Assembly: GCA_965153355.1 (NCBI GenBank)
Contig: OZ231126.1
Location: 34,286,001 to 34,350,000 of the forward strand
Source of the DNA: Flaccisagitta enflata
Lineage: Eukaryota
Direction of reading: 5' to 3'
DNA length: 64,000 nucleotides
A program made the translations under genes and the position numbers. Under the pieces are notes generated by a model that was given only the letters and a program-made list of their open reading frames with translations, made no database searches and was not told the origin of the DNA. Shown here piece by piece: positions 2,770-49,985 of the stretch (the first letter of the stretch is position 1; each line of letters starts with the position of its first letter).

Positions 2770-3075
2770 AGGGTTGACAATGGGGTATGGCAGCTCTGTG
2801 GATAGAAAATTCTTTTGAATATACTAAAACAAGTTTAATCTGCTCAAACGGCTGCCGGAATTAGTCTAGTGGTTAACACACTTGACTTCAAGTTCTTCTT
2901 AATCAATTCATTTCTCTAAAAGTTCCAGGTTCGAATCCCAGGCTGGATTTACAATAAAAGCAAATAGATGAAGCTGAAATTCTGCTTTAAAAGTGATTGA
3001 TCCTAACATTTTATACTAAAAGTTTTTTTTGTAAGGTAAGCCGTAGTGGGATACCATACCCCATTGTCAACCCCT
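2770..3075. mobile_element. Small TIR element (PIF/Harbinger-like) nested in the MITE
   Basis: Inverted repeat GGGTTGACAATGGGGTATGG / CCATACCCCATTGTCAACCC; flanks resemble TWA but the TSD is imperfect. Confidence 0.6.
2854..2947 (+). pseudogene. tRNA-derived sequence with Pol III A and B boxes
   Basis: A box TAGTCTAGTGG (2862-2872) and B box GGTTCGAATCC (2928-2938); acceptor and T stems do not pair properly. Confidence 0.55.
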
Positions 3076-14800: not shown

Positions 14801-16655
14801 AAATTGGCAATTTCCGCGATTTTTGGTCTGACGGTCTTCAAAGAACTGTTATTTGACACCCAAAAAATGCTCCCAGGGTCATGAAATTTTTTTTGGGCAT
14901 CACCAACAGTCTCTTAAAGGAATTTTGGCCCATGGTTCATACATCCCTGCCCTAATATGACAATGCCACCAGCTCAAAGACGATTTTCGGAGTCATTTTT
15001 TTCCAATTTTTGATTTTCGAACAGAATTTTGGGCACTTAAAGTGCTCCAATTTGGATGAAATTTAATATGGAGGTAGTCCATGATGTGAAGTACCTCCAA
15101 TGAAAATTTTGTCCAAATCGGTCAACATTAAGGGGGGTAATGACATCATTTTTCTTGACCCATACTCGGAAAAAAACTGTTTTTTTTTCAAATTTAGGTA
15201 CCTTAAAATTTTCAAAATTTCAATATTTATTACATACAACTTAATTAGGGTCTACTACATGTGCATGCAAAATTTTATGGCTCTCCACCAAGTTTAAGAT
15301 AGGTTTAAGGGCCAAAAATGGCCAAAAAAGGCCATTTTCGGCCATTTTGGGCAGTTTTTTTGGTGGCATTGGAACACGCACCTGAAATTGGGTCAACCAA
15401 GCCTGGATTAGTGTTCCCCTAGGTAATACGCACATTTTAAGACCCAACATGATAGGTGCCACCGGATTCGCCACTCTTATGAAGCCCTACAAAACCTTAA
15501 TCCTCAGACGGCTTTTACAATTGTTGAGCTTCAGACTCTCTTCCAGACAGTGCCACAAAAATGTGAGATCCTTACACATCCCAAGGATTGCTTGTAAGCA
15601 CTGACCCGTATCATGCTGTCGGTTCAACTCATGGGGAGCATTAAGTCCCATGGCTTGCAGGATCATTTTTTTCAGAGACATTTACCTTTGCTCCGAGGCT
15701 GAATTTACTGAAAAAGATCCGGTCTGCTGAAATTTTTGACATTCTTGCATAAGACAGCGTGCCCACGAAGTCAACATTTAGGGTATCAAAATGGGTCAAA
15801 ATAGAAAACATGCATGAGTGAAAATAAAAAATCAAGTGTATAAAAATGATTGAGATATGACATGCAAGATATTTGAGAGCAAAATTTGCATCCATTCAGC
15901 AAGAGACTAAGATTAAGCCTATGTTATTGAGGAAGATTTACTGAAAATTTCTACAAATTTCTTTTTTGTCACTGACAAGAGGTTGGTTGAAATTATAAGT
16001 TTGCATAGAAAATAAAAAAATGAAAAAACAAAGAACATAGTTCTCTTCCCAAACTGTTTTTAGAGAGAACTATGTTTTTGAAAATGCAAAATTTTTTTGG
16101 TTGTGGCATTCTTATAATTTCAACCTCAGAAAATAGAAAAAAATGTCAACAAAATTTTACTAAAAATCTTCATTTTCTTGCCCTTTGCCCTGAGAATTGC
16201 TTATCAAAAGGCAACTTAAAGCGTAAAACATGAAACTTACATAAATAACAAGTGTATCCAGTGAAAACTTGAGCAATGAAAACATATGTGGATGGATAAT
16301 TAGTCCATTATTTATGCAAAAGTGGGGTGAAGCACTTCATTTTTCCCTGGCAGATTTGACGTCATAAAGATGGTTCCATATGGCCCATATGGGATACTAT
16401 AACTAGTAATAGCCCATGAGAGTGTAATCGGGGTCCTAGCCCCCATATCAGAGGTAATACGACGACCTAAGCCCTTTTGCTAGATGTTTGGGATATGGGA
16501 TATGGGATATGGGTCTCTCTTAATTGAGCCATAATTACAGGAGGAGCATTAGCTCTAACTCTGAGTGCATGTAGAACCAACTGCAAGACTGAGTTGAGCC
16601 AGCAATTATTCATAGATGATGGATTCATAGATGATGGATGATGGATTGTCGAGGT
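11821..16655 (-). pseudogene. Ubiquitin-specific protease (peptidase C19/UCH) pseudogene split by a transposon
   Basis: USP motifs in correct order: Cys box LDNPSS..MNNCWLNSVLQ (~16580-16652), RQHDTGQCLQAIL (~15600), NNCK and CTHC zinc-ribbon remnants, P..IVIQLKRF (~12100), YNVLAIIHH...SGH (~11950), WFYCND and AHLLLL in a shifted frame; several frameshifts. Confidence 0.8.
12324..15511 (-). mobile_element. Non-autonomous foldback-type DNA transposon, copy 2 (inverted relative to copy 1)
   Basis: Same CCGTCTGAGG TIRs; 4-bp TSD CTTT (12320-12323, 15512-15515); ~520-bp subrepeats flipping near 13760. Confidence 0.9.
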
Positions 16656-27735: not shown

Positions 27736-29920
27736 CTGTTTTTTTTTCTTTTTTTTTCATTTTTCACCTTTTTCTCTCCGGTTTTCTGTCATTTTCTATC
27801 TTGTCTTTTTTAGGTCTTTTTTTTCTCAATTCCTTTGTTTCTTTGTAGTTCTGTTTCTTTGTTTTCTTTTATCTTTTTTTTCTCGTTTCTTTTTATACTT
27901 CCCTCATTTCTTTTTCTCCCACTTACTTTGAGAGAAAAAAAACCAAGTGTCTCAGGGTGGGGTGTTTCATATCAGGGCTCTGGTCTCCGAGTGGGCTGGC
28001 CGAAATTTTGTAGTTGTGGTATGGTTAGGTGAAGCCCCCGGGCACCATAGATGGCTTCCCAAGTGCCCCCACAAGTAACTCGGTTGCCAGATAGGTGGCC
28101 AAAATGGCCAAAAATGGCCCAAAATGACCAAAATCCTTCAAAATTCCAAAATTTGGTTTATTTGTCACAAAAAATCCCAATCATTGATCCAGTTCACTCA
28201 GTTATAATGTATAGACATGGGTTTGGCCAAAAAACGGCAAGTCGCTGCAATTGGGGGCGTGCAAGGACCTCAAAATGGCTTAAAAAAGGCCTTAAAATGA
28301 CCCATCTTACACAGTATCAAAAATTAATAAAAGAATAATGAAATTTTTTCTTCCAAACCTTAAAATATCCAAGGATATAGCCTCAGTGAAGTGTAACAGA
28401 GTTGAAACAGCAAAAAAATATGGCCCTGAGTGTTGTATCAGCCTAAAAACAGGCCTTAAATAGCCAAAATTGGCCCAAAACGACCAAAATGCTTCAAAAT
28501 TCAAAAATTTGGGTTATTTTTCATGAAAAATCTTAATCATTGATCCAGTCCACTCAGTTATAATGTATAATTATGGGTTTGGCAAAAAAATGGCCAGTGG
28601 CTACAATTGGGGGCTTTCAAGAGACCCAAAATGACCAAAAAAGGCCCTAAAATGACCCATATTACGCTATGGCAAAAATTAAGGAAAAAAACGAAATTTT
28701 TTCTTATAAACCTAAAAATATCCTAAAATGTAGCCTCAGTGAAGTCTAACAGAGTAGAAACAGCAAAAAAATATGGCCCTGAGCATCGAATCAGCCTAAA
28801 AACAGGCCTATATTGGCCAAAATTGGCCCAAAATGATCAAAATGTTTCAAAATTCAAAAATTTGGTGTATCTTTCACAAAAAATCCCAATCATTGACCCA
28901 AACTACTCGGTTACAATGTATAGACATGGGTTTGGCCAAGAAATGGTTGGTGGCTACAATTGAGGGCTTGCAAGGGACCCAAAATCAAAATGTCCAAAAA
29001 GGGCCTTAAAATGACCTATATTACGCTATGTCAAAAATTCTGTCTTCCAAACCTTAAAATATCCCAGGATATAGAATGTAGCCTCAGTGAAGTGAAACTG
29101 AGTAGAAACAGCAAAAAAATATAGCCCTGAGCGTTGTATCAGCCTAAAAACAGGCCTTGAATAGCCATAATTGGCCTAAAACGACCAAAATGCTTTAAAA
29201 TTCAGAATTTTTCATTGATTTTTTATGAAAAATCCCAACCATTGATCCAGTTCACTCAGTTATAATGTAGACATGGGTTTGGCCAAAAAACGGCAAGTGG
29301 CTGCAATTGGGGGCGTGCAAGGACCTCAAAACAGCTTATGAAAGGAATTAAAATGACCCATCTCACACTATACAAAAAATAAATGAAAAGTAATGAAATT
29401 TTTTTTTTTCCAAACCTTAAAAAATCCGAGGATATAGCCTAAGTGAAGTGTAACAGAGTTGAAAGAGCAAAAAAACATGGCCCTGAGCGTTGTATCAGCC
29501 TAAAAACAGGCCTCAAATAGCCAAAATTGGCCCTAAATGACCAAAATGCTTCAAAATTCAAAAAATTTTGTTTATCTTTTATGAATAATCCCAAATATTA
29601 ATCCAAATCACTCAGTTATAATGTATAGACATGGGTTTGGCCAAAAAATGGTCAGTGGCTACAATTGAGGGCTTGCAAGGGACCCAAAATGGCCAAAAAC
29701 GGCCTTAAAATCACCCATATTACACTATGTCAAAAATATCCCAGGATATAGCCTCAGTGAAGTGTAACTGAGTAGAAACAGCAAAAAAATACGGCCCAGA
29801 GCATTGCATCAGCCTAAAAACAGGCCTTAAATAGCCAAAATTGGCCCAAAATGACCAAAATGCTTTAAAATTTGGTTTTAAGGCATTAGCCTAAGTTGCG
29901 GCGTCGGCATTTTCACCGTG

Positions 29921-31674: not shown

Positions 31675-33406
31675 AAAAAGTGACCCAGGATCCTTAGCAG
31701 CCCCAGATGGCCCCAGATGACATTCACTAGCAGTTTTTCAGCCAAGTAAACATCCATGCACTACAACTGAATAAATCAGTTGGAAAGATTGGACTCTTTT
31801 ACAGAAATACAGATTAGATTCTTTTACAGAAATACACAATTTTTGTTCAATTTTGAAGCATTTTTGTCATTTTGGGGCATGCTCAGGGCCATATTATTTT
31901 GCTGTTTCTACTCAGTTACACCTTTCTGAGGCTACAGTTTAGGATATTTTACAGTTTAGAGGACAAAATTTCATTATTTTTCCTTAATTTTTGACATAGT
32001 GTAATATGGGTCATTTTAAGGCCGTTTTTGGCCATTTTGGGTCCCTTGCAAGCCCTCAATTGTAGCCACTGACCATTTTTTGGCCAAACCCATGTTTATA
32101 CATTATAAATGAGTGATTTGGATCAATATTTGGGATTTTTCATGAAAAAGAAACTAAAATTTTGAATTTTAAAGCATTTTGATCATTTTGGACCAGTTTT
32201 GGCTATTTAAGGCCTGTTTTTAAGCTGATACAACGCTCAGGGCTATATTTTTTTGCTGTTTCTACACATTTCCACTTCACTGAGGCTTCATTCTATATCC
32301 TGGGATTTTTTAAGGTTTGGAAGACAGAATTTCATTACTTTTCATTAATTTTTGACATAGCGTAATATAGGTCATTTTAAGGCCTTTTTTGGCCATTTTG
32401 GGTCCCTTGCAAGCCCTCCATTGTAGCCACTGACCATTTTTTGGCCAAACCCATGTCTATACATTATAACCAAGTGATTTGGATCAATGATTTGGATCAA
32501 TGATTTGGATTTTTTGTGAAAGATACACCAAATTTTTGAATTTTGAAACATTTTGGTCATTATGGGCCAATTTTGGCCAGTATAGGCCTGTTTTTGGGCT
32601 GATTCAATGCTCAGGGCCATATCTTTTTGCTGTTTCTACTCTGCTAGACTTCACTGAGGCTCTATTCTAGGCTATTTTAAGGTTTAGAAGAAAAAATTTC
32701 ATTATTTTTCATTAATTTTTAACATAGCAGAATATGGGTCATTTTAAGGCAATTTTTGGTCATTTTGGGTCCCTTGCAAGCCCCCAATTTTAGCCACTGG
32801 CCATTTTTTCACCAAACCTATAACTATACATTATAACTGAGTGGACTGGATCAATGATTGGGATTTTTCACGAAAAAATAACCCAAATTTTTGAATTTTG
32901 AAGCATTTTGGTCGTTTTGGGCCAATTTTGGCTATTTAAGGCCTGTTTTTAGGCTGATACAACATTATTTTTTTATTAATTTTTGATATAGTGTAAGATG
33001 GGTCATTTTAAGGCCTTTTTTAAGCCGTTTTGAGGTCCTTGCACGCCCCCAATTGCAGCGACTTGCCGTTTTGTGGCCACACCCATGTCTATACATTATA
33101 ACTGAGTGAACTGGATCAATGATTAGGATTTTTTGTGAAAAATAAACCAAATTTTTGAATTTTGAAGGATTTTGGTCATTTGGGGCCATTTTTGGCCATT
33201 TTCGCCACCTATGCAGCGACCGAGTTACTCGTGGGGGCACTTGGGAAGCCATCTATGGTGCCCGGGGGCTTCACCTAACTATACCACAACTACAAAATTT
33301 CGGCCAGCCCACTCGGAGACCATAGCCCTGATTTGAAACACCCCAGTCTCAGGGCTGCAAGTGTGAAGGCCATCGCTCCCGCTTGACGGACGAGAGAGAG
33401 AAAGAG

Positions 33407-34320: not shown

Positions 34321-34354
34321 GTGTGTGTGTCCGTATGTGTGTGTATGTGTGTGG

Positions 34355-34775
34355 AGAAAGCGGGGTTGTGTAACATACATTGGAAAATACAAGGCTGTGT
34401 GACAGGTGTGTGATGGGTCCGGATTAAACACCAGTGAGAGCTCCAAAGGCTCTCATCCTTTATTAAAGTAGGGTTGAGTAGTAATGTTGTCCAACTTTCA
34501 TACATTGGAACAAACTAGGTGGTGTGATATACATCAAAGAATTCAGGGATGTGTGACATGTGCAACAATTCATCCTACATACATTGTAGAAAAAATGGGT
34601 GAAGTGACATACATCAGAGAATTCTGGACTGTGTGACATACATTGGAAAAACTGGGTGGTGTGACATTCATCGGAGAATTCTGGGCTGTGTGACATACAT
34701 TAGAGAAAACTTGGTGGTGTGACACACATCAAAGAATTTTGGGCTGTGTGACGTACATCGACGAAAAATGGGTGG
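34355..34775 (+). repeat. Satellite of alternating ~29-bp subunits (left part)
   Basis: gtgtgacatacatcggagaattctgggct / gtgtgacatacattggagaaaactgggtg; continues after the retrotransposon. Confidence 0.9.
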
Positions 34776-35686
34776 TATAAAGTACGCCCACGAGTTTCAA
34801 CTGGCACTGTCTATGAGCGTCTATCTGACTGACGACTTGTGGTGAAAGAAAGTTGGCCGATTGGAAAATAGGAAGGCGATCGTCTCGTTTATTCCATAAA
34901 AATTTCAACAACTGAAGAGAGGGGGAAAAATGAAAGGGAAAGTGGGCGTTAATTGTGATCAGCAAACGCAAAAGATAACATGAAATCGAGATAGGACACA
35001 ATAAAGGACAGAAACAGCACATGACAACATGTTCATCTTCTTCAGAGCCCATGCCACCTGATAATACCTGCCCCTGCCCCGGCCCATCCCATTAAATTCA
35101 TCCATATCATCCCTATAGCAAGCTGATCGGACTAGCGATAAAAACCATACTAAAATCCGGCGATAAAGATGCAAAAGGGCAAAAGACAAAAATAACAGAC
35201 CGGAAGACAAGATAAAAACAACGTTAATAAAAGCAGAAACACGTCTATAAAACTTACTTTTAGGCCCACTTTCGTTGGTTTCAACCCACAGTCTGTCGAT
35301 GTCAAATTAACGTTAATTGTCCGTTCATTAGTTTATCTGCAATAAAAAGATGAGAGATTATTGAAATTAGTGAATTCCAAGGGCGCATTCAAACGATCAT
35401 AAAAATCAATCAATCACTTTAAGAAGCGATGCCATAATTAAATAAAATCAATCAATCCAAAAATTGGATGATACGAAAGACGAGTTACGTATATTTGCCT
35501 ACGTAGTAAAAACAAATGGCACAAAATCAAGGCGCAACCATATGGTTACCCATCTAGCGTTCAATATAAAAAATGGCAAGAAACAAAAGACACGGGCATC
35601 GAATAGTAGAAAGAAAAAGCCAAAAGCACGCAAAAGAGACAGAAGGCACACACACCTAAGAGACGGACAGACATACATTTCTAACA
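34776..35686 (-). repeat. 3' LTR (911 bp)
   Basis: Direct repeat of 47061-47976 with only a few substitutions and small indels visible by eye. Confidence 0.95.
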
Positions 35687-36487: not shown

Positions 36488-38863
36488 TTACAACAAAAAC
36501 TCAACCTCAACCCTTCCCAAACCATGATACTTACGCGGGCGTTTTTCGCCAGGCCCCGGGGCGGACGTCATTCCCACGCCCCGGGTAGCGCCCCCGACTT
36601 GGCCGGCCTGTCCATCGATGGGATGAGGATGTGATGGTGGAATACGATCCTCAGCGAATGGCGGCGCTCTCCACGCCATGTTGCAAATTGGTAGTTAAAT
36701 TGAACAGCAACTGGGCGTGGCACCAATCAGCGTTTAGCTGGCGGTCTGATTTTTCCAAGGCCTGGTTCGATTTTCTTATTCCCAGGCTTGGGAGCGTCTT
36801 TGCGACAGGATCTGCTGACCGACTTTTTCTGCTGGAGAAGACGCAGGAGGTGGAGATGCTGCATCGCAATTCGGCGCAATCGAAATTCGGACGTACAGCG
36901 GACGCAGTTTTAAAGTCGACGGCCATAGCCGCCTTTGCGCGTTCCACCGCTTCCTCTTTCTTCTTAGCCTTCATCGCACAGGCCTGCTTCTCCTTTTCAA
37001 GCTGCTTCTCCAGTTCCACGACTCGCTTGTTGCCTTTGACCACCTCATTGTCCGCAGCCATTGCTGCTCGACGAGCATCGTCTCTCTCCTGTTGGATGTT
37101 GCGACGAATCCTCTCGTCTAAGACTTGACGAGCCGCTTCAACTCGTTGACGCGGCGGAAGCGACGCGAAGAAGTCTTTTGGAAGCCTGGATGCTAAATTC
37201 TTCACCACCCCCAATGGAGCATTTGAGGTCAGCGAAGAGGCTTCTCGTAGCAATGACTCGGCGATGTGGTGTCCATGCGCAGGATCAAAGGCTGGATCCG
37301 ACGGGGGAGGCGGGTTCTGCACTTGCTGCAGACCTTGGGCAGACTCGGTTTGCTGACGAGGCGCTACCAGCTTTAACAGATGCTGAAGCACCGCCAACTA
37401 GTTCGCTTCCTACCGCGGCTTTTGATGGCTGCGAGTGAAAGGAAGACGCTCCCGTCTGCTGACCAGAGACTTGAGGTTTAACAGCGGACGCCGAAGCACC
37501 GCAAGTAGAACCTCCCTTGGTTGCTGCTTTGTGCTTTTTCCCAGCTCTCTTGGTCTTCTTCCCCTTTGCTGCCGCTGCCCCAGGCGCCTGATCCAGCTTC
37601 TGGGTTGCTGCCAACGTTGCCGTCGACGAACCACTTGAAGCTTCTCCTTGGCCTTTGGGCGTTACTGCTGCAGGGGGCGCGCCTGGAGGCGCTTGAAGGG
37701 GGCCTTTGCTTTTGGAATTTGGCCCTTTTTGTTGACTCTGCACATTGCGCGTTTGTGGAGTCTTTCCCCGACGTGATCTCTTCGATTGTTGTGAGGGAGT
37801 GACGTCACGAGGACCCTGTTGCTGCTGATTTGGGGGATGAACCAATCCAGGGCGCGATTGACGACTTCCTGATGCTGTAGAGTGAATTGCCGCTGATGTA
37901 GCTGCGGCTGCGTCGAGCACGAATACCGCTGGTGGAGTTGCGGAAGCGTCGACAGCAGTTGCACCAGGAGGCTTCGGAGCCGCATTCTTCCTCTTCGTCG
38001 CTTGGACCATGCGACGAACCTCCTTATCATGCTCCCTCCTTCTTTTGTTGCTTTGGATTTTGCGCTCCAGAGTCTCCGAGCCCAGCTCTGTTTGATTAGC
38101 CGATGAGCGCATGAGAGTTTGTTTGTTGCAGCATACTGAAAGTTTTTCAAACTCTTTGAAGAGGAGAGATACTTCGACGTCCGGACTGATGATACGATAC
38201 CACCGCGCCTGCATCCGTTGGTGTTTCTCTTCCGGCGTCGCAGTGTCCACTTCGGAGTCAATGCCTTTCTCCACCACCTCCCATTCACCAACACCTCCTC
38301 CTCTATTTCCATCCCCTCCTCCTCCACTCTTGCTCCATCATTGACCAATCTCTCTCTCTCTTCGCCCCCGCTGCGTTGACGTGCAGCTGCAGACGCTTGA
38401 TCACGAGACGCTGGGCGACCGAAATCAAGGCAGAATTGGCGAGGCGATGGGGGCAAATCCGATGATGATGACGCCGCCGCGGAAGTGGTGGATAAGTCCG
38501 TCGGCGGCCGATTGATCGCAATCCGCCTCGAACCTCCATCTTTGATGACCACCAATGGAAGGCGGCAGCGGGATCAACGGCGTTGGATGGCTGTTGACGA
38601 TTTACCAACGCATCATCTTGTTGACGCTTTTTATTCGCCATTTTTGCGTCGGCCCGAGCGAAGGTCGCCATTGAAGGCTGCCAGCGCGACAGCCTCCTCC
38701 TCCGCCCCGAACGACGTCGTGGATGCAGATCCCTCTCGAGTCGAGCCGTCGTTGAAGAGTCGATGAAGATCCAGGACCCGTACGACGTCGACACGTCGGC
38801 TTCAGCCTCGAGACGCGCTGCTGACGGGACATCTTGACTCCGACGAGCGACTTCAAGATGCAA
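36488..38863 (-). CDS. Extra ORF region downstream of pol (unknown product, broken into overlapping frames)
   Basis: Chain of overlapping minus-strand ORFs (38303-38863, 37662-38555, 37285-38277, 36651-37397, 36488-36679); GC-rich block with a low-complexity Ala/Ser/Gln/Lys segment and a coiled-coil-like segment. Confidence 0.6.
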
Positions 38864-39183
38864 ACTGACTTCGTAGATGGAATGACGTCGTCAGCGGAAG
38901 CTTTGAAATGTTCGTGTTGAAGAACTGATAAAGGTAAGAACGGATTTGGCACAATAATATGTACATATAGACAGGGCGAATGAATCAGTGTTTTGATGTG
39001 TAAATGGAAATGGACAACATAATTGACAAGAGGAAAGATGAAAGCATGGATAATCAGAACCAAATATGAATAATAACAACTCTTTGTAAATATAACAAGT
39101 CAGAGTATCAATCACTCATATCTATAGTTACTAATGGACAGGCCCATGCGCCTTTTTCTCTCTCTCTCAAAACTTAGCGTTTT

Positions 39184-39777
39184 TTATGAGTCCAATTCCA
39201 GCCGCACGAGCTTCGTGCGGTCTTTCGTCACGATCTTTCCATCTTGGCGCCGGATGTGAGCCCTCCGGACATGGGCTGACGAACCCTCGACGCCCATGAC
39301 ACGTCCTAAGCTCCAATTGTGACGAGGCAGCGTTTCGTCCATGACGATGACCATGTCATCCACCGCAAAGTCTTTCTCAGATCTCGACCATTTGCTTCGC
39401 GCATGAAGAAGCGACAAATATTCGACCCTCCACGATTTCCAAAATGCATCCACACGCGATTGCGCACGCCTCCATTGAATCTTCGCGGAGTCGGCGTCAG
39501 AATTGACGCCTTGTTGCACCAGATCTAGAGGGGCATGGCCGGATGTTGATGGATTGAGGATATGATTCGGTGTAAGGGCCTCAGAGTCATTTGGATCATC
39601 GCTGAGCGCTGTTAGAGGACGGCGATTGAGAATTCCTTCAACTTCGACGACGGCAGTGTTGAAGGCGTCGACGTGGAGGATGGCGCCAGTTGAGATGGAA
39701 GCAAGATGGCGCTTAAAGAGAGCAACGATTCTCTCACACCCTCCATAGTGGGGTGTTCTCGGCGTGATAAATCCCAC
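39184..39777 (-). CDS. pol: Integrase C-terminal part (catalytic E region plus DUF5641-like tail)
   Basis: PRTPHYGG-ERIV, EGILNRRPL, LTPNHIL, FWKSWRVEYL, PRHNWSLGRV; frameshifted from the upstream ORF. Confidence 0.92.
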   Translation of the reverse strand: MGFITPRTPHYGGCERIVALFKRHLASISTGAILHVDAFNTAVVEVEGILNRRPLTALSDDPNDSEALTPNHILNPSTSGHAPLDLVQQGVNSDADSAKIQWRRAQSRVDAFWKSWRVEYLSLLHARSKWSRSEKDFAVDDMVIVMDETLPRHNWSLGRVMGVEGSSAHVRRAHIRRQDGKIVTKDRTKLVRLELDS

Positions 39778-39798
39778 CGAAGGCCGCGCCGCTGCAGT

Positions 39799-42711
39799 TC
39801 AGGGAGTTGACGAGCGGTTCCAAGCTTCCATTTCCTTCTTGAGGATGTTGTTGGCGCCGACTAGATTCGTCCCACAATCTGATGTGAAACGGCGGATTCC
39901 TGGGCGCCTTGCTGCAAAGCGGATGATTGCATTTACCATCGCATCGGCTGACATGTTGAAGAGCAATTCCACATGGACGGCGCGTGACACGAAACAGGTG
40001 AACACTGCGATCCACACCTTATGATCAGCACGCCCGTTCATTTTTACCATGAAATGCCCCATGACGTCCAATCCAGTCTCTGCAAAGACAGGCGCCGGAT
40101 TGACGCGATTTGATGGAAGATTGGCCATTTGCTGATTTGCGTTCTTTTTAAAGTTCTTCTGGCATCTAAAGCACGTGTTGACGACGCTCTTGACGGCCTG
40201 AAGACCTTTTGTAATCCACACAAATTGGCGTAATTGGCACAATGTATGCTTTGCACCCGCGTGAAAATCATTATGATGATAATGGCGAATTAATGATTTC
40301 ACATTCTCGTCTTTTGGCGGCAGGATAAAGGGAAATTTAGCGTCGTGAGAGATGTCGGCATTTTCCAATCGACTGCCGACGCGAAGGATGCCGTCGTCGT
40401 CGACGAAAGGGTTCAACTTCCGCATCTCCTTGTTCTTTATGATAAAGTCACGACGGCTTTCTGGCTTGAAGACTTTTCCCAATTCCAATTGTTCGAAGAC
40501 GTCAGAATAATGCTGCCGCTGCATTGACTTGACGAGCCGTTTGCGCGCCTCCTCCACGACGTCTTGCGTCACTTCCGGTTTTGGAAGGAGATCTTTTGTT
40601 GCTCGTGTCTTCGCCCTTGGATACGCTCTCCACCTTTTGACTGCGATGAGAACCATGCCGATAATCCGCAATTTCTGCATCCATTTTCCCCGAGAAGCGG
40701 CTGCAAGAAGTATCGCGTCAGCCACTTGTTTCTTTTCACTCTCAGCCGCATACAGAGCGGCGACCTGTGCAGAAATAGGGCACGTCGCGATGTTCGTCTT
40801 TGGCCATTGATCTTCGGGAAGACGCAAAAATGCAGGGCCTTGATGGAATTGACGCCATTTTTCGGCTTCATGGGCCTGGATGCCTCTGCTACAGTGGTCC
40901 GCCGGGTTGTTTGACGAGTCAACCCAGCGCCACTGTTGAGGATCAGACCCACTATGGATCTTGGAGAGACGATTGGCGAAGAATACAGGCCTCGGTTTTG
41001 CCGGATTGTAAATCATCTTCAGTGCAGATTCAGAATCGGACCAAAATCTGACGACGAGATTGTCCAAGTTGATGGTCCTTCCGACGAAGCGTTTGAGCTG
41101 CACTGCTTTTTCTGCGGATACAATCTCGACGCGTGGAACGCTGTTGTGATGAGAGGCACGTTTTGGATTGAGAGGAATGACGTGAGATTTGGATGCGATG
41201 AATGAAATGTGAACATCTCCATCTCGGTTGACTTGACGTCGATATGCAACTGCTCCATATCCGCCTTTTGGAGCTGCATCGCAAAATAACTCGATTGTTA
41301 CTTCCGCAATGTCGCTATTGTCGACGCCGCCATTCCACCAGCGTTCAATTCGATATTGTTGTAGAAGAGGCCAAGATGAAGTATAGCGGAAGAAAGATTC
41401 CTCAACGCTCTCTTCCAAGGGCGAATCCCATCCCACTTCCTGTGGACGACAGAGTTGAAGATGACGTCTGCCGATGTATGCGCTTGGACTCCAAAAACCC
41501 AATGGATCGTAAAGTTTCGCTTGCATAGAGACCAATTGACGAGGTGTTTTTGCTCTAAGAGTTTTGAATTCTTCGTCGCAGATGAAAATAAAGACGTCTT
41601 CCGCCGGAAGCCATGAGACGCCCAACACCTTCGTCGGCGCATCATCTTGCTTATCTGAAATGGGGATTGGCACATTTGGATCTCCATCCATCAATTGCCG
41701 CGCATTGCTCTTCCACTTCACAAGATCCATCCCGCCTTCCGCCATCGCCGCCACTGAATCCACCTTTAGTTGCAGTGCTTCGTCGACCGAATCCCCACCC
41801 CCACTTCCGTCGTCGACGTAAAAACCATAGCGAATAAGATCGTAGACGTTGTAGGGGTATTTGGGCCGGATTACTTCAGCATGCTTTCTGACGGTGAAAG
41901 ATGTGACGAATGAGCTGGATTGGCTGCCGAAGACGTGTGATAAAAACAGATTCAAAATTGCTTCTCGAAGAGTGCGGTCCTTGAACCAAAAGAATCTGAA
42001 TAAATCAGCGTCGTCAGGATGGACGCGGATTTGGTGGAAAAACGCCTTTATGTCACACATAAAGGCGATTTTCCACTGACGAAAACGCATGAGGATGTCC
42101 ATCAGGCTATTCATCAAATTTGGGCCTCCGACGAGCAAATCATTGAGTGAGATCCCGTCGGTCGCCGCACGCGCATCGTGACATACGCGCGTTTTTCCGC
42201 GCAATTCGACAATATGAAGCGGCAAGTACCAGCGCGGCTTCTCAATGCCGTCGTCGTCGTCGACGTTGTCAATCTCAATCGCCACTCCCGTCTCGTAAAA
42301 CTTCTCGATTTCACGGAAGACTCTTTCTTTGAAGGCTGGATCACGCTTGAAGCGAAAACGTTGGTTACCGAGTCGCTTCATCGCAGTCGGTCGTGATTTC
42401 ACTCTTCTCAGAATCTCCATGATTTTTTCATGATGAAATTTCCATGTGACAGGAGCAAAGTACTTTTTCACAATTGGGCAAAAATATATCTTTTCCTCTA
42501 ACGTTTTGCACGCTCTGACATTTTCAAGGGAATCACCCATCTCCTCTTGCGAGACGATTGATGATGCAAAGTCATGGTAGAAGATGCGGTCGATGTTGCT
42601 GTTGAGGACGATTGTCGAGGATGCGATCGATGTTATCGTTGAGGACGCGGTCATCCGTCGCGATAGCGTTGATCGACGCAATATCTCGTCCTCTTTTGCC
42701 CGTTTTTCCAC
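39799..42711 (-). CDS. pol: Reverse transcriptase, RNase H (Pao peptidase_A17 type), integrase zinc finger and core
   Basis: CDIKAFFHQI, HVFGSQSS, FYVDD; LFCDA..GYGAVAY, VPRVE, FWSDS, NPADHCSRG; H..H/CFRC; GLDVMG, TSDCGTN. Confidence 0.96.
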   Translation of the reverse strand: MEKRAKEDEILRRSTLSRRMTASSTITSIASSTIVLNSNIDRIFYHDFASSIVSQEEMGDSLENVRACKTLEEKIYFCPIVKKYFAPVTWKFHHEKIMEILRRVKSRPTAMKRLGNQRFRFKRDPAFKERVFREIEKFYETGVAIEIDNVDDDDGIEKPRWYLPLHIVELRGKTRVCHDARAATDGISLNDLLVGGPNLMNSLMDILMRFRQWKIAFMCDIKAFFHQIRVHPDDADLFRFFWFKDRTLREAILNLFLSHVFGSQSSSFVTSFTVRKHAEVIRPKYPYNVYDLIRYGFYVDDGSGGGDSVDEALQLKVDSVAAMAEGGMDLVKWKSNARQLMDGDPNVPIPISDKQDDAPTKVLGVSWLPAEDVFIFICDEEFKTLRAKTPRQLVSMQAKLYDPLGFWSPSAYIGRRHLQLCRPQEVGWDSPLEESVEESFFRYTSSWPLLQQYRIERWWNGGVDNSDIAEVTIELFCDAAPKGGYGAVAYRRQVNRDGDVHISFIASKSHVIPLNPKRASHHNSVPRVEIVSAEKAVQLKRFVGRTINLDNLVVRFWSDSESALKMIYNPAKPRPVFFANRLSKIHSGSDPQQWRWVDSSNNPADHCSRGIQAHEAEKWRQFHQGPAFLRLPEDQWPKTNIATCPISAQVAALYAAESEKKQVADAILLAAASRGKWMQKLRIIGMVLIAVKRWRAYPRAKTRATKDLLPKPEVTQDVVEEARKRLVKSMQRQHYSDVFEQLELGKVFKPESRRDFIIKNKEMRKLNPFVDDDGILRVGSRLENADISHDAKFPFILPPKDENVKSLIRHYHHNDFHAGAKHTLCQLRQFVWITKGLQAVKSVVNTCFRCQKNFKKNANQQMANLPSNRVNPAPVFAETGLDVMGHFMVKMNGRADHKVWIAVFTCFVSRAVHVELLFNMSADAMVNAIIRFAARRPGIRRFTSDCGTNLVGANNILKKEMEAWNRSSTP

Positions 42712-43231
42712 ATACAGTCCAACCGAATAGACATCTGAAGCAAGTCAAAGATCCTGAAGGCCCTCGACGGATTTCTTGAGCGACGGCGGCATCCGCATGC
42801 GCCGCTCCGATGATCATCATCACACCGCCTTCAGCTTCTGGAAATTTTACGCCTTCGATGTGAGGTTGGTCAGATAGGTCGCGGAGAAAAGGAGGAATAT
42901 CGCGTTCACTCGTTAACAAATCACCCACCAATGCGTCGCTGATGTCGACGACGTATTCCTCGTCGACCGATTGCATGGTGAATGATGCGATGAAACGATC
43001 CTCAACAACATGACTTCCCACAGTAATCACCGTCATTTGCACTGTTTTTGTTGGAATCAGAAGACTGCGAATGACGCTGGTACTGATCACGTCGCGATCA
43101 GCGCCTGAGTCGATCATAGCATATATCGTCCTCTGCGCACCCGAAGAATTGTTTAATATAGTCACTGGAACGATCGGACGGACAACGTCGTCGAATGAAG
43201 AGACGGACCGCGACGTTGCCGTCGCCGCCAG
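42572..43231 (-). CDS. pol: Aspartic protease, in frame with gag after a single TGA
   Basis: RPIVPV...YAMIDSGADRDVI, MIIGAAH, CLFGWTVCG. Confidence 0.9.
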   Translation of the reverse strand: MAATATSRSVSSFDDVVRPIVPVTILNNSSGAQRTIYAMIDSGADRDVISTSVIRSLLIPTKTVQMTVITVGSHVVEDRFIASFTMQSVDEEYVVDISDALVGDLLTSERDIPPFLRDLSDQPHIEGVKFPEAEGGVMMIIGAAHADAAVAQEIRRGPSGSLTCFRCLFGWTVCGKTGKRGRDIASINAIATDDRVLNDNIDRILDNRPQQQHRPHLLP

Positions 43232-46207
43232 TCATGCCGTGGCGTTAGGAGAGATGATTTCCGTTGGATTGGCTGCCTCCGTCGTCGACGGAGCTGTTGG
43301 TGCTGCTGCAGCCGCATCCTCTGACTTTTTGAAGGGAGCCAGCGGTACTTTATTTCCCTGCTTGTTTTCTCCTTTCTTCTCTTCCTTTTCTTCTTTCTTG
43401 TAGGTGCGCCCGTGGAGAATCGTCGCGTGCCGCTTCTTGCAGGTTTGGCAAGTCGGTCTGTTCACGCATCCTTTGGCGTTGTGTCCTGGCGTGAGACAGT
43501 GGAAGCAAAGACGACGAGACATGATCTTTTGAACTCTCGCGTCCACTTCCAACTCTAATAGTTGATGACAGTTTTCCGTTTGATGCATTCCACTGCAGAC
43601 GTTGCAGCGGTCCGTCGACTGCGTCTTTTGCTTGCCATTGGTCAAAGCATCTTCATATGATGATGGCGCTTCTTTCTCTGTAGTTGCGACTGCTGCCACT
43701 GATGCTGTTTTGCAGCTTGCGCCTTTGTTGCGCTGAATCACCGCCCATGTCTCGATCATATTGACCAAGTTGTCGAATGAAAACAATTGTCCATTTAGGG
43801 CTGCTTCATGTTGCTTTTCCCAGAATTTATCTGCAAGATGAGGGACCCTCTTGTTGAGAATCTCCTGCAGCAGCTCGTCACGATAGCATTGTTGCACTTC
43901 TCCACAGGTCCTCGCAATCTTCTTTGCCTTTTGCAACCTTGCAGACAAATTGAAATGCCTTGCATGGTCGGCCGACTGGATCTTCGCCTCCGCGACGATT
44001 TCGTTGAACAGCGCCGCAATGTTGCAGCGCCTTGCCATAAAGACGACGTCCATTTTTGCGAAGGCGTCGTCAATCTCTCCTCTTGCTGTCGCTTCAGTTG
44101 CATCAATCGTCGCAGTTTCTATGATCTCTTTTGCCGGACCAGCAAACCACTTAGGCAATTCCAATAAGATGTCCATTTGCGTCAAGCCTTCATGCTTCTC
44201 AGCATCTTTAAACTTCCTCTTCCACATCATAAAGTCGGTGGATGAAAGCTCCTGCAGAGGCTTCTCAGGTCTTGCTCTCTCCAACGCTTTGAGGCCGACC
44301 TCCCTTGCTCGCATGAGATCATTGTACGTCGCTCTTTCCAAAAACCTGTCCAGCGCCGGATTGTTGGGCATCTGAACGTGGACTTCCGGTTGACGGGCTA
44401 CTTGATGATGCTCCACTTGATGATACGCTGAGGGTTGTTGGACGAAGGCGTATTGACCCCCGACTTTCACCGGAGATCTCTTTTTGGTGGTTTTAACGCT
44501 CCACCCCACTTCCTCTTGCTGATTCACTTGTTGTTGACGATCATCTTGATGGAATCGGGGAGCATCAAAATCTTGGCGGACGTACTGTCGCTGTTGTTGT
44601 TCCTCTTTTCGTTGTTTTTCTTCTGCTCTCGCTGCGGCAAGGTCAAAGTCTCTCTGCTGAATCTGCATCTTCAAACTATCCACTTCTTGCTGCAAACGTT
44701 GATTCTGCTGGATGACTTCCGCTTGAGGCGTTACTAGAGGCGCTTGCGCTACTTTCGGCGCCTTCGGCTGCAATCCATTCGTTGTCTTCTTGGGAGCGAC
44801 TTTTCTTCTCTCTTTATCTTGCAGCTGTTGTGCCAACTTCGCGTCAGCGGCCTCCTGCTTCTGCCTCCTGCGCATCGCCTCCGTTGCATCACCTCCGCTT
44901 CCGGCTGTGTTGAAGACCTTTTCCTCTTGATGGGGAAGACCAGTCTCCCTTCTAGCAGAGCCAATCTGCTTCTCGAAGATCACTTCCGGTGCGGTAGGGA
45001 GAATCGTTGCTGCTGGGGCTTGATGATGCTGATCTTGATGCTGTTGCTGTTGTTGAAGCCGTTGCTGCTGCCACTGTTGATGTTGAAGCTGCTGTTGCTG
45101 GTCAGGACGCTGTTGCTGTTCATTCTGCTGCTGCAGTTGACGCTGACGTTGTCCTTGCTGCTGCTGCTGCTCCCACTGTTGCTGCTGCTGCATCGGCTGC
45201 TTGACGGACGTTTCCACTGACTGCACATGACGTTGCTGTGTGTTCGAATTGAAGTTTCTGAAGATAGATCGACGGTCTTTTGGCGGATGCTGCGGCTGCT
45301 GCTGTTCCAGCTCAGACAGTTGCCTAAGCTTCACATCACGCTGCTCTAAAGCCCCACCAATGCCGCCGTCGTTCAGGCTATTCCAGTGCTTTCGTTGCAT
45401 TTCTGCCGCATTGTTGAATATTCCCGCTCTTCTATCTTCATCTCGTTGCTGCTGCTGGAGAAAGTTACACATTCTGTCGTATAACTCTTTGTCTTCTTGT
45501 GATGAGCTTCGCTGTTGGAATCCCAATGGCACCGCGATCGGCGCCTTTGGAGCTGTTGCTGCACCACCACCTTCACCTTCAGCCATCATGCGCAGCCGTT
45601 GATCTGCAAGGCGTTGCTGTCTCTCTTCTTCTGTCTCCTCACTGACGTTCATGCTTTCGACAAGATGGTTGTTTGAAGCTGGAGGATCCACCACCACCGC
45701 TGGGATTGCGGCGGAAGGTTGCTGTTGCTGCTGCTGTTGCTGTTGCGTACTTTCTCCTGCATCGTTTTGCCGCTGTTGTTGTTGTTCGTGCGGCTGCATT
45801 GCCGTTTGTCGCAGCTCTTGTTGTTGTTGCTGTTGCTGTTGTTGCTGCTGTTGATCGTGTTGTTGTTGTTGTTGAGCGCCGGCTGCAGGATCTTGTTGAC
45901 AAAATTGTTGGAGTTGCTGCAACTGCTGCTGCTGCAACAGCTCTTGCTGCTGCCGTTGAGCCGTCGTTTGCTGCTGCTCCTGTGGTCGGTGGAGTTGACG
46001 TTGCTGTTGGAGTTGCTGCTGCATCTGCAATTGATGCTGCTGCTGTTGCTCCTGCTGCTGTCGCTGCTCCTCCTCCCGTTGTTGCTGCTGCATATCGTCA
46101 ATCAGCCGACGGCCTTGTCGCATTTCCTCCTCCAACTGCCTGCCCCATCTGTCTCTCTCAGCACTCCTGTTGACGAAGCGTCGCCTCGCCCTCTCCTGCG
46201 GCGTCAA
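43232..46207 (-). CDS. gag: Gag: polyQ-rich N-terminal half, capsid-like region, three zinc knuckles
   Basis: CNVCSGMHQTENC, CFHCLTPGHNAKGC, CQTCKKRHATILH; FMMWKRKF capsid-region motif. Confidence 0.92.
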   Translation of the reverse strand: MTPQERARRRFVNRSAERDRWGRQLEEEMRQGRRLIDDMQQQQREEEQRQQQEQQQQHQLQMQQQLQQQRQLHRPQEQQQTTAQRQQQELLQQQQLQQLQQFCQQDPAAGAQQQQQHDQQQQQQQQQQQQELRQTAMQPHEQQQQRQNDAGESTQQQQQQQQQPSAAIPAVVVDPPASNNHLVESMNVSEETEEERQQRLADQRLRMMAEGEGGGAATAPKAPIAVPLGFQQRSSSQEDKELYDRMCNFLQQQQRDEDRRAGIFNNAAEMQRKHWNSLNDGGIGGALEQRDVKLRQLSELEQQQPQHPPKDRRSIFRNFNSNTQQRHVQSVETSVKQPMQQQQQWEQQQQQGQRQRQLQQQNEQQQRPDQQQQLQHQQWQQQRLQQQQQHQDQHHQAPAATILPTAPEVIFEKQIGSARRETGLPHQEEKVFNTAGSGGDATEAMRRRQKQEAADAKLAQQLQDKERRKVAPKKTTNGLQPKAPKVAQAPLVTPQAEVIQQNQRLQQEVDSLKMQIQQRDFDLAAARAEEKQRKEEQQQRQYVRQDFDAPRFHQDDRQQQVNQQEEVGWSVKTTKKRSPVKVGGQYAFVQQPSAYHQVEHHQVARQPEVHVQMPNNPALDRFLERATYNDLMRAREVGLKALERARPEKPLQELSSTDFMMWKRKFKDAEKHEGLTQMDILLELPKWFAGPAKEIIETATIDATEATARGEIDDAFAKMDVVFMARRCNIAALFNEIVAEAKIQSADHARHFNLSARLQKAKKIARTCGEVQQCYRDELLQEILNKRVPHLADKFWEKQHEAALNGQLFSFDNLVNMIETWAVIQRNKGASCKTASVAAVATTEKEAPSSYEDALTNGKQKTQSTDRCNVCSGMHQTENCHQLLELEVDARVQKIMSRRLCFHCLTPGHNAKGCVNRPTCQTCKKRHATILHGRTYKKEEKEEKKGENKQGNKVPLAPFKKSEDAAAAAPTAPSTTEAANPTEIISPNATA

Positions 46208-46997
46208 TCCGTTGATGATCCCGCGACCTCTTGCAAGAGCGTCGCGTCGTCGAGATCCGCAAGCATGTCGTCAGCTTGCTCCATCGGAGACGCACGCGCA
46301 GGTTCGATTTCGAGACCAAATCTGATACCCATTGATTGGCGGCATCTCCTCTTTGGATCGGCAGATTTAAAAATTGGCCGCCAGTTGGAGATTGCGCACC
46401 ATGTCGTGGGACCGGAAGTGGTAAATACTCGGATCCGTCGGGGTTTGGCGACGACGTTCGCATCCTTGGAGTCGGAGCGCCGGTAACATTGTCACGGGCG
46501 GCGTGGGTGTCAGTTGGGAGACTATTCCATGAGAATTCGTTGACGGGCCTTTTGCAATTCCCAATGTCATTATGCACTGCGTTCACGATGTCGGCGTTGG
46601 AAGGAAAACCCTCTGGATAGTTTTCACGATCAAAGAAACGCATGGAGTCCCACTCGCGCCGGATTCGACGCAAAGAAGACGCCGCGAATCGAAGAGGGTC
46701 GCCGGGCATCGAGTCGAGCGCCATTTGTCTTGCATACGATATAAAGTCGTAGACCATGTCCCGAAGGCCGTGTCGAGCGCCATCCGATTCACAGGCGGCG
46801 TCGTCGAAGTCGTTCGTTCCTTCGGTGCAAGTAGAAACGGCGTCGAAAAGGCGCCGGCATCCTTCAATTTCCGCAGTGATGTCGTTCCTCATTGCGCGCA
46901 AACGATTCGACCTCGGACACTGATTCAAACCGAAGTGAGATACACGAGATGACGTTGAAGCAGTCGAGACGGTGTCGTCGTTACGCGCGGCTGCCAT
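46158..46997 (-). CDS. Probable N-terminal segment of Gag (frameshifted from the main gag ORF)
   Basis: First ATG (ACAATGG) 64 nt after the 5' LTR; 279-aa open frame overlapping the gag ORF. Confidence 0.65.
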   Translation of the reverse strand: MAAARNDDTVSTASTSSRVSHFGLNQCPRSNRLRAMRNDITAEIEGCRRLFDAVSTCTEGTNDFDDAACESDGARHGLRDMVYDFISYARQMALDSMPGDPLRFAASSLRRIRREWDSMRFFDRENYPEGFPSNADIVNAVHNDIGNCKRPVNEFSWNSLPTDTHAARDNVTGAPTPRMRTSSPNPDGSEYLPLPVPRHGAQSPTGGQFLNLPIQRGDAANQWVSDLVSKSNLRVRLRWSKLTTCLRISTTRRSCKRSRDHQRIDAAGEGEATLRQQEC

Positions 46998-47049: not shown

Positions 47050-47060
47050 AATTGTTGAAA
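47050..47060 (-). promoter_or_regulatory. Putative self-priming primer-binding site
   Basis: TTTCAACAATT abuts the 5' LTR, has no TGG tRNA-type start, and is complementary to AGTTGTTGAAA at 47199-47189. Confidence 0.7.
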
Positions 47061-47976
47061 TATAAAATTACGCCCACGAGTTTCAACTGGCACTGTCTAT
47101 GAGCGTCTATCTGACTGACGACTTGTGGTGAAAGAAAGTTGGCCGATTGGAAAATAGGAAGGCGATCGTCTCGTTTATTCCATAAAAATTTCAACAACTG
47201 AAGAGAGGGGGAAAAATGAAAGGGAAAGTGGGCGTTAATTGTGATCAGCAAACGCAAAAGATAACATGAAATCGAGATAGGACACAATAAAGGACAGAAA
47301 CAGCACATGACAACATGTTCATCTTCTTCAGAGCCCATGCCACCTGATAATACCTGCCCCTGCCCCGGCCCATCCCATTAAATTCATCCATATCATCCCT
47401 ATAGCAAGCTGATCGGACAAGCGATAAAAACCATACTAAAATCCGGCGATAAAAATGCAAAAGGGCAAAAGACAAAAATAACAGACCGGAAGACAAGATA
47501 AAAACAACGTTAATAAAAGCAGAAACACGTCTATAAAACTTACTTTTAGGCCCACTTTCGTTGGTTTCAACCCACAGTCTGTCGATGTCAAATTAACGTT
47601 AATTGTCCGTTCATTAGTTTATCTGCAATAAAAAGATGAGAGATTATTGAAATTAGTGAATTCCAAGGGCGCATTCAAACGATCATAAAAATCAATCAAT
47701 CACTTTAAGAAGCGATGCCATAATTAAATAAAATCAATCAATCCAAAAATTGGATGATACGAAAGACGAGTTACGTATATTTGCCTACGTAGTAAAAACA
47801 AATGGCACAAAATCAAGGCGCAACCATATGGTTACCCATCTAGCGTTCAATATAAAAAATGGCAAGAAACAAAAGACACGGGCATCGAATAGTAGAGAAA
47901 GAGAAAAAGCCAAAAGCACGCAAAAGAGACAGAAGGCACACACACCTAAGAGACGGACAGACATACATTTCTAACA
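47061..47976 (-). repeat. 5' LTR (916 bp)
   Basis: TGTTAG start at 47976, TTTATA end at 47061; direct repeat of 34776-35686. Confidence 0.95.
47174..47201 (-). promoter_or_regulatory. Predicted initiator (TCAGTT, +1 at 47199) and AATAAA poly(A) signal defining R
   Basis: TCAGTT at 47201-47196 after a pyrimidine tract; AATAAA at 47179-47174; both are present in the 3' LTR. Confidence 0.6.
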
Positions 47977-49985
47977 GGTGGTGTGACATAAATCGGAGAA
48001 TTCTGGGCTGTGTGACATACATCAGAGAAAACTGGGTAGTGTGACATACCTCAGAGAATTCCGGGCTGTGTGACATACATCGGAGAAAACTGGGTGGTGT
48101 GACATACATCGGAGAATTCTGGGTTCTGTGACATACATCAGAGAAAATTGGGTGGTGTGACATACATCAGAGAATTCTGGGCTGTGTGATATACATTGAA
48201 GAAACTGGGTGGTGTGACATACATCAGAGAATTCCGGGCTGTGTGACATACATCGGAGAAACTGGGTGGTGTGACATACATTGAAGAATTCTGGGATGTG
48301 TGACATATATCGGACAAAACTGGGTGGTGTGACATACATCAGAGAATTCTGGGCTGTTTGACATACATTGGAGAAAACTGGATGGTGTGACATACATCGG
48401 AGAAATCTGGGCTGTGTGACATACATTGGAGAAAACTGGGCGGTGTGACATATATTGAAGAATTCTGGGCTGTGTGACATACATTGGAGAATTTTGGGCT
48501 GTATGACATACATTGGAGAAAACTGGGTGGTGTGACATACATCGGAGAATTCTGGGTTATGTGACATACATTGGAGAAAACTGGGTGGTGTGACATACAT
48601 CGGAGAATTTTTGGCTGTCGGACCTGCAGCGAAGAAAACTGGGTGGTGTGACATACATCGGAGAATTCTGGGCTGTGTGACATACATTGGAGAAAACTGG
48701 GTGGCGTGACATACATTGGAGAATTCTAGGCTGTGTGACATACAATGGAGAAAATTTGGTGGTGTGACGTACATTGGAGAATTCTAGGCTGTGTGACATA
48801 CATTGGAGAAAACTGGGTGGTGTGACATACATTGGAGAATTCTGGGCTGTATGACATACACTGGAGAAAACTGGGGGGTGTGACAGATATTGGAAAATTC
48901 AGGGCTGTGTAACATACATTATAGAAAACTTGGTGGTGTGACATACATCAGAGAATTCTGGGATGTGTGACATGTGCAACAATTCATCCTACATACATTG
49001 TAGAAAAAATGGGTGAAGTGACATACATCAGAGAATTCTGGACTGTGTGACATACATTGGAAAAACTGGGTGGTGTGACATACATCGGAGAATTATGGGC
49101 TGTGTGACGTACATTGGAAAAAACTAGGTGGTGTGACAGACATTGGAGATAACTGGGTGGTGTGACATACATCGGAGAATTCTGGGCTGTGTGACATACA
49201 TTAGAGAAAACTTGGTGGTGTGACACACATCAAAGAATTTTGGGCTGTGTGACCTACATCAAAGAAAACTGGGTGGTGTGACATAAATCGGAGAATTCTG
49301 GGCTGTGTGACATACATCAGAGAAAACTGGGTGGTGTGACATACGTCAGAGAATTCCGGGCTGTGTGACATACATCGGAGAAAACTGGGTGGTGTGACAT
49401 ACATCGGAGAATTCTGGGTTCTGTGACATACAAAAGAGAAAATTGGGTGGTGTGACATACATCGGAGAATTCTGGGCTGTGTGATATACTTTGAAGAAAC
49501 TGGGTGGTGTGACATACATCAGAGAATTTCGGGCTGTGTGACATACATTGGAGAAACTGGGTGGTGTGACATATGAATTTTGGTTTAAAAGTGATAATCA
49601 TTGCCCTAACTACTTTTGGTAAGCAGTTTGCTTTTGGGTTAGATTGAGAAGGAATGTTTTTCGGATTGTTTTATGGAAAACTAGGAGTGGTGCGCGTAGT
49701 AACTAGTCAGTGAGGGTTCACAAGGCCCTCTTCCATTTATTTCAGTTTGGGTATAGTGAGGGATATTGTTCCACTTTTCATACATCGAAGAATTCTGGCA
49801 TGTGTGACATATATTGGACAAAACTGGGTGGTGTGACATACATCAGAGAATTCTGGGCTGTTTGACATACATTGGAGAAAACTGGATGGTGTGACATACA
49901 TAGGAGAAATCTGGGCTGTGTGACATACATTGGAGAAAACTGGGCGGTGTGATATATATTGGAGAATTCTGGGCTGTGTGACATA
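47977..49985 (+). repeat. Satellite of alternating ~29-bp subunits (right part)
   Basis: Same units as 34355-34775; interrupted by unrelated sequence at ~49575-49778. Confidence 0.95.

Follow-up and report, generated by a model that had tools for sequence, protein, structure and literature searches.

An in-frame UGA conserved between gag and pol, and its probable readthrough, in a lineage of BEL/Pao retrotransposons from Flaccisagitta enflata

A window of 64,000 nucleotides from the genome of Flaccisagitta enflata (assembly GCA_965153355.1, contig OZ231126.1, positions 34,286,001 to 34,350,000 of the forward strand) carries on its minus strand a recently inserted BEL/Pao long terminal repeat (LTR) retrotransposon, 13.2 kb in length, whose gag and pol genes share one reading frame and are parted by an in-frame TGA just ahead of the protease. 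The TGA, together with the CTR codon (CTA or CTG) that follows it, recurs in ten families of related elements, and the pattern of conservation indicates that this stop is not accidental and has been under long-term selection. Judging from the sequences compared, programmed readthrough is very probably the best explanation of the junction. Positions given below are those of the window.

On the minus strand the junction reads GCA TGA CTG GCG GCG ACG GCA ACG TCG CGG. The TGA ends a frame of 1012 codons, and the identical frame remains open for 219 codons further, opening with LAATATSRSVSSFDDVVRPIVPV and reaching the DSG motif of the protease at codon 41. A preliminary description of the window, made from its letters, had read the end of gag as GCA TGA CTG with the frame continuing into a DSG protease, and both the sequence and the translated frames bear this out. 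It had also set the stop, placed at a domain boundary, apart from indels scattered elsewhere in the element. That distinction holds: the frameshifts of the window copy near 46.2, 42.6-42.7 and 39.8 kb are genuine in the assembly, and other copies do not share all of them.

Copies were sought in the whole genome, 794 Mb in 9 contigs. The sequence TGA-CTGGCG is found in all of the 30 best DNA matches and in all of 50 loci that are 94-100% identical, the two sets overlapping in part. All 150 scored protein matches have the TGA inside; 146 of them contain no other stop, and 12 are open for 2,598-2,684 codons but for this one TGA. We also searched genome-wide with a pattern built on the junction flanks, in which the stop codon was left free, and with the reversed pattern as a control; 446 of the 451 matches to the forward pattern have TGA. 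One copy, L111, shows indels that compensate each other around an intact TGA. A scan of metagenomes returned 66 pattern matches with one relative, which belongs to the window's own family and has the identical TGA junction, a scan of viral contigs gave two weak hits among 62, and near-identical pieces are present in two marine RNA-library assemblies. The preliminary description had named a sense codon in other copies as the evidence that would speak against its proposal; what 446 of the 451 flank matches and all of the protein matches hold at this position is TGA, as do nine other families.

To survey those families, 20 loci with the PF05380 domain were chosen by frame length out of 150 rows. 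Sixteen of the 20, from seven families, have gag-TGA-CTR-pol in one frame, and the other four, from two families, have a fused gag-pol. Besides these there is a sister family with a Pol 80% identical to the window family's: its 18 copies all have TGA, with CTG next in 14 of them. In a tenth family, every one of 20 loci reads TGA-CTAG. All ten families have the arrangement gag-TGA-CTR-pol: seven use CTA and three CTG, a G comes after this codon in nine, and six have GCA directly ahead of the TGA. Leucine codons in six pol frames of these families are 38% CTR and 38% TTR, so that the invariable use of CTR after the TGA suggests selection on the bases rather than on the leucine residue. The constraint on CTR therefore appears to act at the nucleotide level, with the proviso that the families share ancestry and are not fully independent, and the signal common to all ten is the primary motif TGA-CTR.

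The same comparison bears on whether the TGA could be a nonsense mutation carried by a lineage that is dead or non-autonomous and is copied in trans. The several frameshifts of the window copy and the presence of CGA in one decayed copy lend this some support, but it does not agree with a stop of identical position and context in ten families, most of which (the seven of the survey) are 32-55% identical in Pol, with fully open pol frames of 1,325-1,480 codons behind the stop, or with LTR pairs that are 99.2-99.9% identical and flanked by 5-bp target-site duplications in 6 of 6 copies. The explanation is largely refuted, and we give it next to no weight. Extremely improbable, too, is a UGA read as an amino acid residue throughout the host genome, or as selenocysteine, which would suit a stop that is always TGA and never TAA or TAG. 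Host-wide recoding fails because six pol frames, with 21-29 TGG codons apiece, are free of internal TGA and two of them terminate at TGA; for selenocysteine, an Rfam scan of the element found no selenocysteine insertion sequence or other relevant family. The conservation of TGA over copies and families, which the preliminary description had put forward as a check, gives good support to its proposal of a programmed stop at the gag/protease boundary that is most likely read through.

In programmed readthrough, most ribosomes on the genomic RNA would halt at the UGA and release Gag, while a minority, placing an amino acid there through near-cognate decoding, would go on in frame to Gag-Pol, and Gag would thereby outnumber the enzymes. 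At the heart of the signal would be the primary context UGA-CUR(G), inherited through a deep lineage of families. According to the accessible text of a study of viral readthrough (PMC3159437), alphaviruses and several plant viruses share UGA-CUA as their readthrough consensus, and the stems there start 7-12 nt past the stop and raise readthrough 3- to 14-fold. Among retrotransposons, TGA-CTA or TGA-CTG parts gag from pol in Tj1, Tosmo1-3 and Tcry1, as given in the part of PMC10085805 available to us.

Pol could instead be made apart from Gag, by an internal promoter, reinitiation or some other non-canonical bypass, as discussed for Tca2, for which the accessible portion of PMC2194720 describes a weak promoter at the junction and flanks that gave no readthrough in Saccharomyces cerevisiae. 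Potential starts for a separate Pol are an ATG at codon 2 in L082 and the CTG at codon 1 in the window family. Against this, the codon is CTA, not CTG, in seven of ten families, and the first in-frame ATG comes at codon 39 in the window and at codon 67, past the catalytic Asp, in L086, with none in 80 codons of L090. The families have no ATG in common from which an intact protease could start, and separate initiation fails because of these last two cases. It would also leave unexplained a stop that in every family is TGA, lies in frame and has CTR after it, and we regard it as unlikely.

Two further ways of removing the stop act on the RNA. Splicing could drop it from a minority of transcripts, with TGA-CTAG as the 3' splice site, since CTAG supplies a YAG in seven families. 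This fails because in the window and sister families the first 45 nt past the stop contain no AG; several of the CTAG families are, besides, purine-rich upstream (pyrimidine fraction 0.05-0.25), and contigs of three RNA runs contain no joints, a weak point as contigs drop rare forms. We consider splicing very improbable, and place at the same level adenosine-to-inosine editing that would turn the UGA into a sense codon in part of the transcripts, guided by adjacent double-stranded RNA. A long stem can indeed form beside the stop in some families, but the stop lies outside any conserved duplex and several families have little structure. The contigs of two RNA libraries, X1 and X2, run across the stop; they contain no joint and, among the 40 of 81 rows listed, no difference at 43232-43234, although such contigs cannot show level, strand, rare splicing or editing.

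Two mutually exclusive folds of the RNA 3' of the stop were considered for the window family (Table 1). One is the perfect GCGACG-GCAA-CGTCGC stem-loop six nt after the stop that the preliminary description had picked out and that is present as it said; the other is a longer stem. Perfect 6-bp hairpins with a GNRA loop number one in the 7.8-kb coding span, where 0.11 are expected from 100 shuffles, and those with any tetraloop number three, where 2.3 are expected; such a hairpin fell at +5 to +14 in 47 of 5000 local shuffles. Ranked by folding energy against the 517 windows of the coding span, the 60 nt from +7 come within the best 10. The predicted fold of the 3' sequence is the stem from +9 to +55 (-23.5 kcal/mol), with pair probabilities of 0.6-1.0 when no upstream sequence is included. 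For the 6-bp hairpin the predicted probability is 0-0.11 with the 3' sequence only and 0.64 when 60 nt of upstream sequence are added.

Comparison with the sister family separates the two parts of the hairpin, as all six stem pairs are kept there and the loop is GCCG or GCTG; the stem is conserved, and the GNRA loop is rejected as the functional feature. Four-fold degenerate sites that differ between the window and sister families number 1 of 6 in codons 1-7, against 6 of 9 in codons 8-19 and 41 of 62 in codons 20-200; the scarcity of change in codons 1-7 supports a constraint on the leading 21 bases, a stretch that belongs to either fold. Of the third positions in codons 13-18, on the long stem's 3' arm, 5 of 6 are kept. 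Farther afield, L082 has a strong predicted stem from +9 (z -4 to -6), L094 and L096 have moderate ones (z -2 to -3), and that of the tenth family, long and beginning at +13, has many of its pairs disrupted among the subfamilies. A 3' stem is predicted for each of the three CUG families, and several CUAG families have no convincing one. On these predictions, a stem starting 6-8 nt past the stop would with fair probability add to readthrough in the window family, and the +9 to +55 stem seems at least as likely as the 6-bp hairpin to be the working form, a GNRA loop not being required.

Several observations weigh against readthrough or against a part for structure in it. Five matches to the flank pattern lack TGA, the one seen having TGG; since the reversed control pattern yields 6 matches, this is the level of chance or decay. 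A decayed, frameshifted copy, L180, has CGA at the stop position, an in-frame deletion in L178 (G000:C2:74897500-74899500), a copy of the window family, takes out the stop along with the last part of the gag linker, and 4 of the 18 sister-family copies have CTT after the TGA. In Tca2, again from the accessible part of PMC2194720, a UGA with a predicted pseudoknot gave no readthrough in a yeast reporter, and because the Tca2 flanks failed in this way the layout of a junction alone is not proof. The raw RNA run X21 placed 0 reads on the stretch and hence provides no test. As to the folds, comparison of the window and sister families by eye revealed no compensatory pair change for either, one pair of the long stem is broken in the sister family, and z values near -2 are weak because several window sizes were tried. 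No convincing 3' structure appeared when L086/L089, L090 and L092/L093 were folded. With three families so placed, a loop that is not conserved and a long stem that usually out-competes the 6-bp hairpin, the role that the preliminary description had given the GNRA hairpin holds only in part and is overstated.

A quick IQ-TREE tree was built from the reverse transcriptase (RT) to RNase H (RH) region, with 88 rows kept and 17 dropped for short overlap. It contains no gypsy or copia outgroup, its root and named sub-clade are not fixed, the tenth family is absent, and the sister family is the row P0003. One branch, with an SH-aLRT value of 100, has ten readthrough rows and 31 ENA proteins on one side and the fused families with all named animal proteins on the opposite side. 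None of the 35 closest ENA proteins starts in gag, and 27 start within about 35 residues of the catalytic Asp, which fits an upstream stop. The N-termini of P0005, P0023 and P0010, searched against the present genome, found no close copy (best 57%, 44% and 47%), and two of these searches brought up the tenth family. As three ENA proteins have no close copy in the genome, the readthrough lineage probably occurs in other hosts.

The element is assigned to BEL/Pao by its proteins. Three domains of pol exceed their Pfam cut-offs, PF05380 (E 1e-28) and PF18701 (E 4e-20), both of Pao type, and PF17921 (E 5e-9); RVT_1 and rve fall under theirs. The order is protease, RT, RH, integrase (PR-RT-RH-IN), the RT-RH region is nearest to BEL/Pao proteins, and PF05380 is found in nearly all 91 homologues. 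A Pfam scan of four gag frames gave no match. The C-terminal part of gag matches the gag end of the BEL/Pao protein P0039 (BLASTP, E 9e-11), and the nearest Atlas clusters are DUF1759 (score 0.94); with the Cys-His knuckles, this makes up a Gag with capsid and Cys-His nucleocapsid. The direct LTRs fall within the 0.2-1.2 kb of the group, have a target-site duplication and end in TATA or TACA. Measured against the profile of the Belpaoviridae from the international virus-taxonomy committee (ICTV; PMC8742986), the element shares LTRs, three Cys-His knuckles, PR-RT-RH-IN, PF05380 with PF18701, the 5-bp duplication and a polypurine tract. The profile describes continuous or overlapping gag and pol, a primer site complementary to tRNA-Arg or tRNA-Gly and a length of 4.2-10 kb; the element, at 13.2 kb, has instead a single frame cut by a conserved TGA, lacks a tRNA-type site and carries a further frame 3' of pol. 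The primer site is counted as a departure, and the departure in gene layout is the finding itself.

Table 1. Features of the element and of its gag-pol junction, in window coordinates
Feature	Position	Strand	Basis
In-frame TGA, end of gag	43232..43234	minus	Sequence and translation; TGA in 446/451 flank matches
CTGG, +4 to +7 of the readthrough context (UGA-CUR-G)	43228..43231	minus	CTR in 10/10 families, G at +7 in 9/10
Protease start of pol, retropepsin, DSG at codon 41	42572..43231	minus	PF13650 E 0.0016, under curated cut-off; first in-frame ATG only at codon 39
6-bp hairpin GCGACG-GCAA-CGTCGC, 6 nt past stop	43210..43225	minus	Sequence; stem kept in sister family, loop not
Longer stem-loop, about 13-16 bp, 13-nt loop, 8 nt past stop	43177..43223	minus	Minimum-energy fold of 60 and 100 nt after stop
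gag, about 1,250 codons, Gln-rich N-terminal half	43235..46997	minus	Open reading frames; one frameshift near 46.2 kb in window copy
Three Cys-His knuckles (nucleocapsid), then 59-codon linker to stop	43412..43606	minus	Read from translation
Rest of pol: RT, RNase H region, integrase	39184..42744	minus	Pfam; frameshifts near 42.6-42.7 kb and 39.8 kb in window copy
Extra open frame after pol (ORF3), three pieces in window copy	36651..38890	minus	List of open reading frames
5' LTR (TGT...TATA), about 0.9 kb	47061..47976	minus	911 aligned bases 99.7% identical to 3' LTR; target-site duplication CCACC both sides
3' LTR, purine-rich tract AAAAATGGGGCAGAA before it	34776..35686	minus	
Primer-binding position without a TGG site of tRNA type; complement of 47188-47199	47050..47061	minus	
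Candidate self-primer in LTR AGTTGTTGAAAT, starting at initiator-like TCAGTT, AATAAA about 20 nt downstream of that start	47188..47199	minus	Start site inferred

Gag varies widely in length across families, from about 770 to 1,250 codons, and its N-terminal half in the window (44400-46150) is rich in CAG and CAA runs. The catalytic motif of the protease is variously DSG, DTG, DGG, DNG or DTC in families with an open pol (L090-L096, L084-L089, L154-L187). Two window pieces of ORF3 were scanned without a significant Pfam match; low-complexity frames of 555-880 codons lie 3' of pol in L082, L086, the tenth family and the sister family. The 3' ends of the LTRs (47061-47070 and 34776-34785; L198-L207) vary by copy, between TATA and TACA and through length changes in the last 10 bases; they nearly always agree within the pair of one copy, and most do not end in CA. 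The element sits in a satellite array of 29-bp period (34345-34775 and 47977-49600; family D7/D17). Elsewhere in the window, a repeat of about 500 bp forms direct and inverted arrays with arms of up to 990 bp at 94% (1200-5500 and 12300-15500; D20, I1-I25), and a 390-bp inverted repeat at 94% (27951-28340 and 32963-33352) lies on both sides of sequence that is higher in G+C near 30-32 kb; this may be a DNA transposon.

No tRNA-type (TGG) primer site follows the 5' LTR in any of the seven readthrough families with defined LTR ends, whereas the fused control L097 has the primer site TGGTCCCTCGAGCCGGAT there; LTR pairs lack a definition for L082 and L090, and that of L099 is only partly resolved. 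In the window copy, the LTR segment listed in Table 1 pairs with the site after the LTR at 12 of 12 positions, one of them G-U. In the window, sister and tenth families the site pairs with 12-14 LTR bases, a result equalled by 7, 4 and 1 of 300 shuffled LTRs, respectively; the self-complement is not significant in L086 (31 of 300), L094 (45), L092 (71) or L096 (231). The A+U-rich primer duplexes are weaker than most downstream 17-mers, except in the tenth family. L087 and L089 differ by one compensatory change in the primer duplex, and L081-83 have a 10-base complement at similar spacing. From these pairings the site looks like a candidate for self-priming of the Tf1 type, as that is presented in the accessible text of PMC10085805.

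Several known systems resemble this one. The Ty3/gypsy elements Tj1, Tosmo1-3 and Tcry1 of fission yeasts likewise have gag-TGA-pol in frame followed by a leucine codon, CTA or CTG, and the Tj1 group is thought to self-prime, as the BEL/Pao readthrough lineage may do (PMC10085805 and PMC4600332, so far as their accessible portions go); transposition of Tj1 needs its stop, as stated in the available part of PMC4600332. These elements differ in being chromoviruses of fungal hosts and in having GAA before the stop, compared to GCA in six of the ten families here, and the likeness is most likely convergent. Tca2 of Candida albicans, a Ty1/copia element and thus of a different superfamily, also has gag-UGA-pol in one frame, as shown in the available pages of PMC2194720. 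For the remaining comparisons we draw on the accessible portion of PMC3159437. Signals of the alphavirus and tobravirus type (UGA-CUA or UGA-CGG) share UGA-CU, a stem about 8 nt past the stop and a polymerase downstream; covariation and mutagenesis stand behind that stem, whereas the structure in the BEL/Pao elements is predicted, specific to families and absent from some. In murine leukaemia virus, an in-frame stop between gag and protease sets the Gag:Gag-Pol ratio, but through UAG and an essential pseudoknot with an 8-nt spacer, where the element has UGA-CUR and pseudoknots were not searched for.

These strands can be joined into one account, which as a whole we consider possible but less likely than not: that a BEL/Pao lineage of deep origin, not described before and occurring in more than one marine host, has exchanged a fused gag-pol for UGA-CUR readthrough, tunes the rate by family, primes itself with its own RNA, has an extra gene after pol, and reached the pair of traits seen in Tj1 independently.

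Kamikaze, a BEL/Pao element of Bombyx mori, was reportedly listed, by Gao et al. in 2003 or else by Havecker et al. in 2004, with a stop between gag and pol. If so, Kamikaze would be a single insect element, compared to a motif conserved across a clade here, and could lower the novelty of the finding. Nothing on such a stop occurs in the accessible text of PMC554778 or PMC2678813, both of which name Kamikaze. No BEL/Pao readthrough was described in the literature searched, which did not reach Gao 2003, Havecker 2004, Repbase or GyDB. By term search of the text available, "stop codon" is absent from a BEL/Pao survey (PMC3118150) and a mollusc survey (PMC6238403), and a 2026 review of readthrough in animal viruses (PMC13517186) leaves retrotransposons unmentioned; the accessible parts of PMC5009743, PMC554778, PMC2678813, PMC12440569 and PMC3601003 contain nothing on BEL/Pao readthrough. 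Readthrough is known from other retroelements and appears to be undescribed for BEL/Pao. The mechanism itself is well known, which limits the surprise.

The ICTV profile calls replication of the Belpaoviridae poorly understood and gives only fused or overlapping genes (PMC8742986). Control of the Gag:Pol ratio in BEL/Pao has been little studied, and a leaky stop found clade-wide would be a third gene layout for the group. Annotation tools would class such elements as dead or as pol-only, in keeping with the closest database proteins, 0 of 35 of which start in gag. The ten families offer as many natural versions of a single readthrough site, some with 3' structure and some lacking it, through which the trade-off between context and structure may be followed in animal cells.

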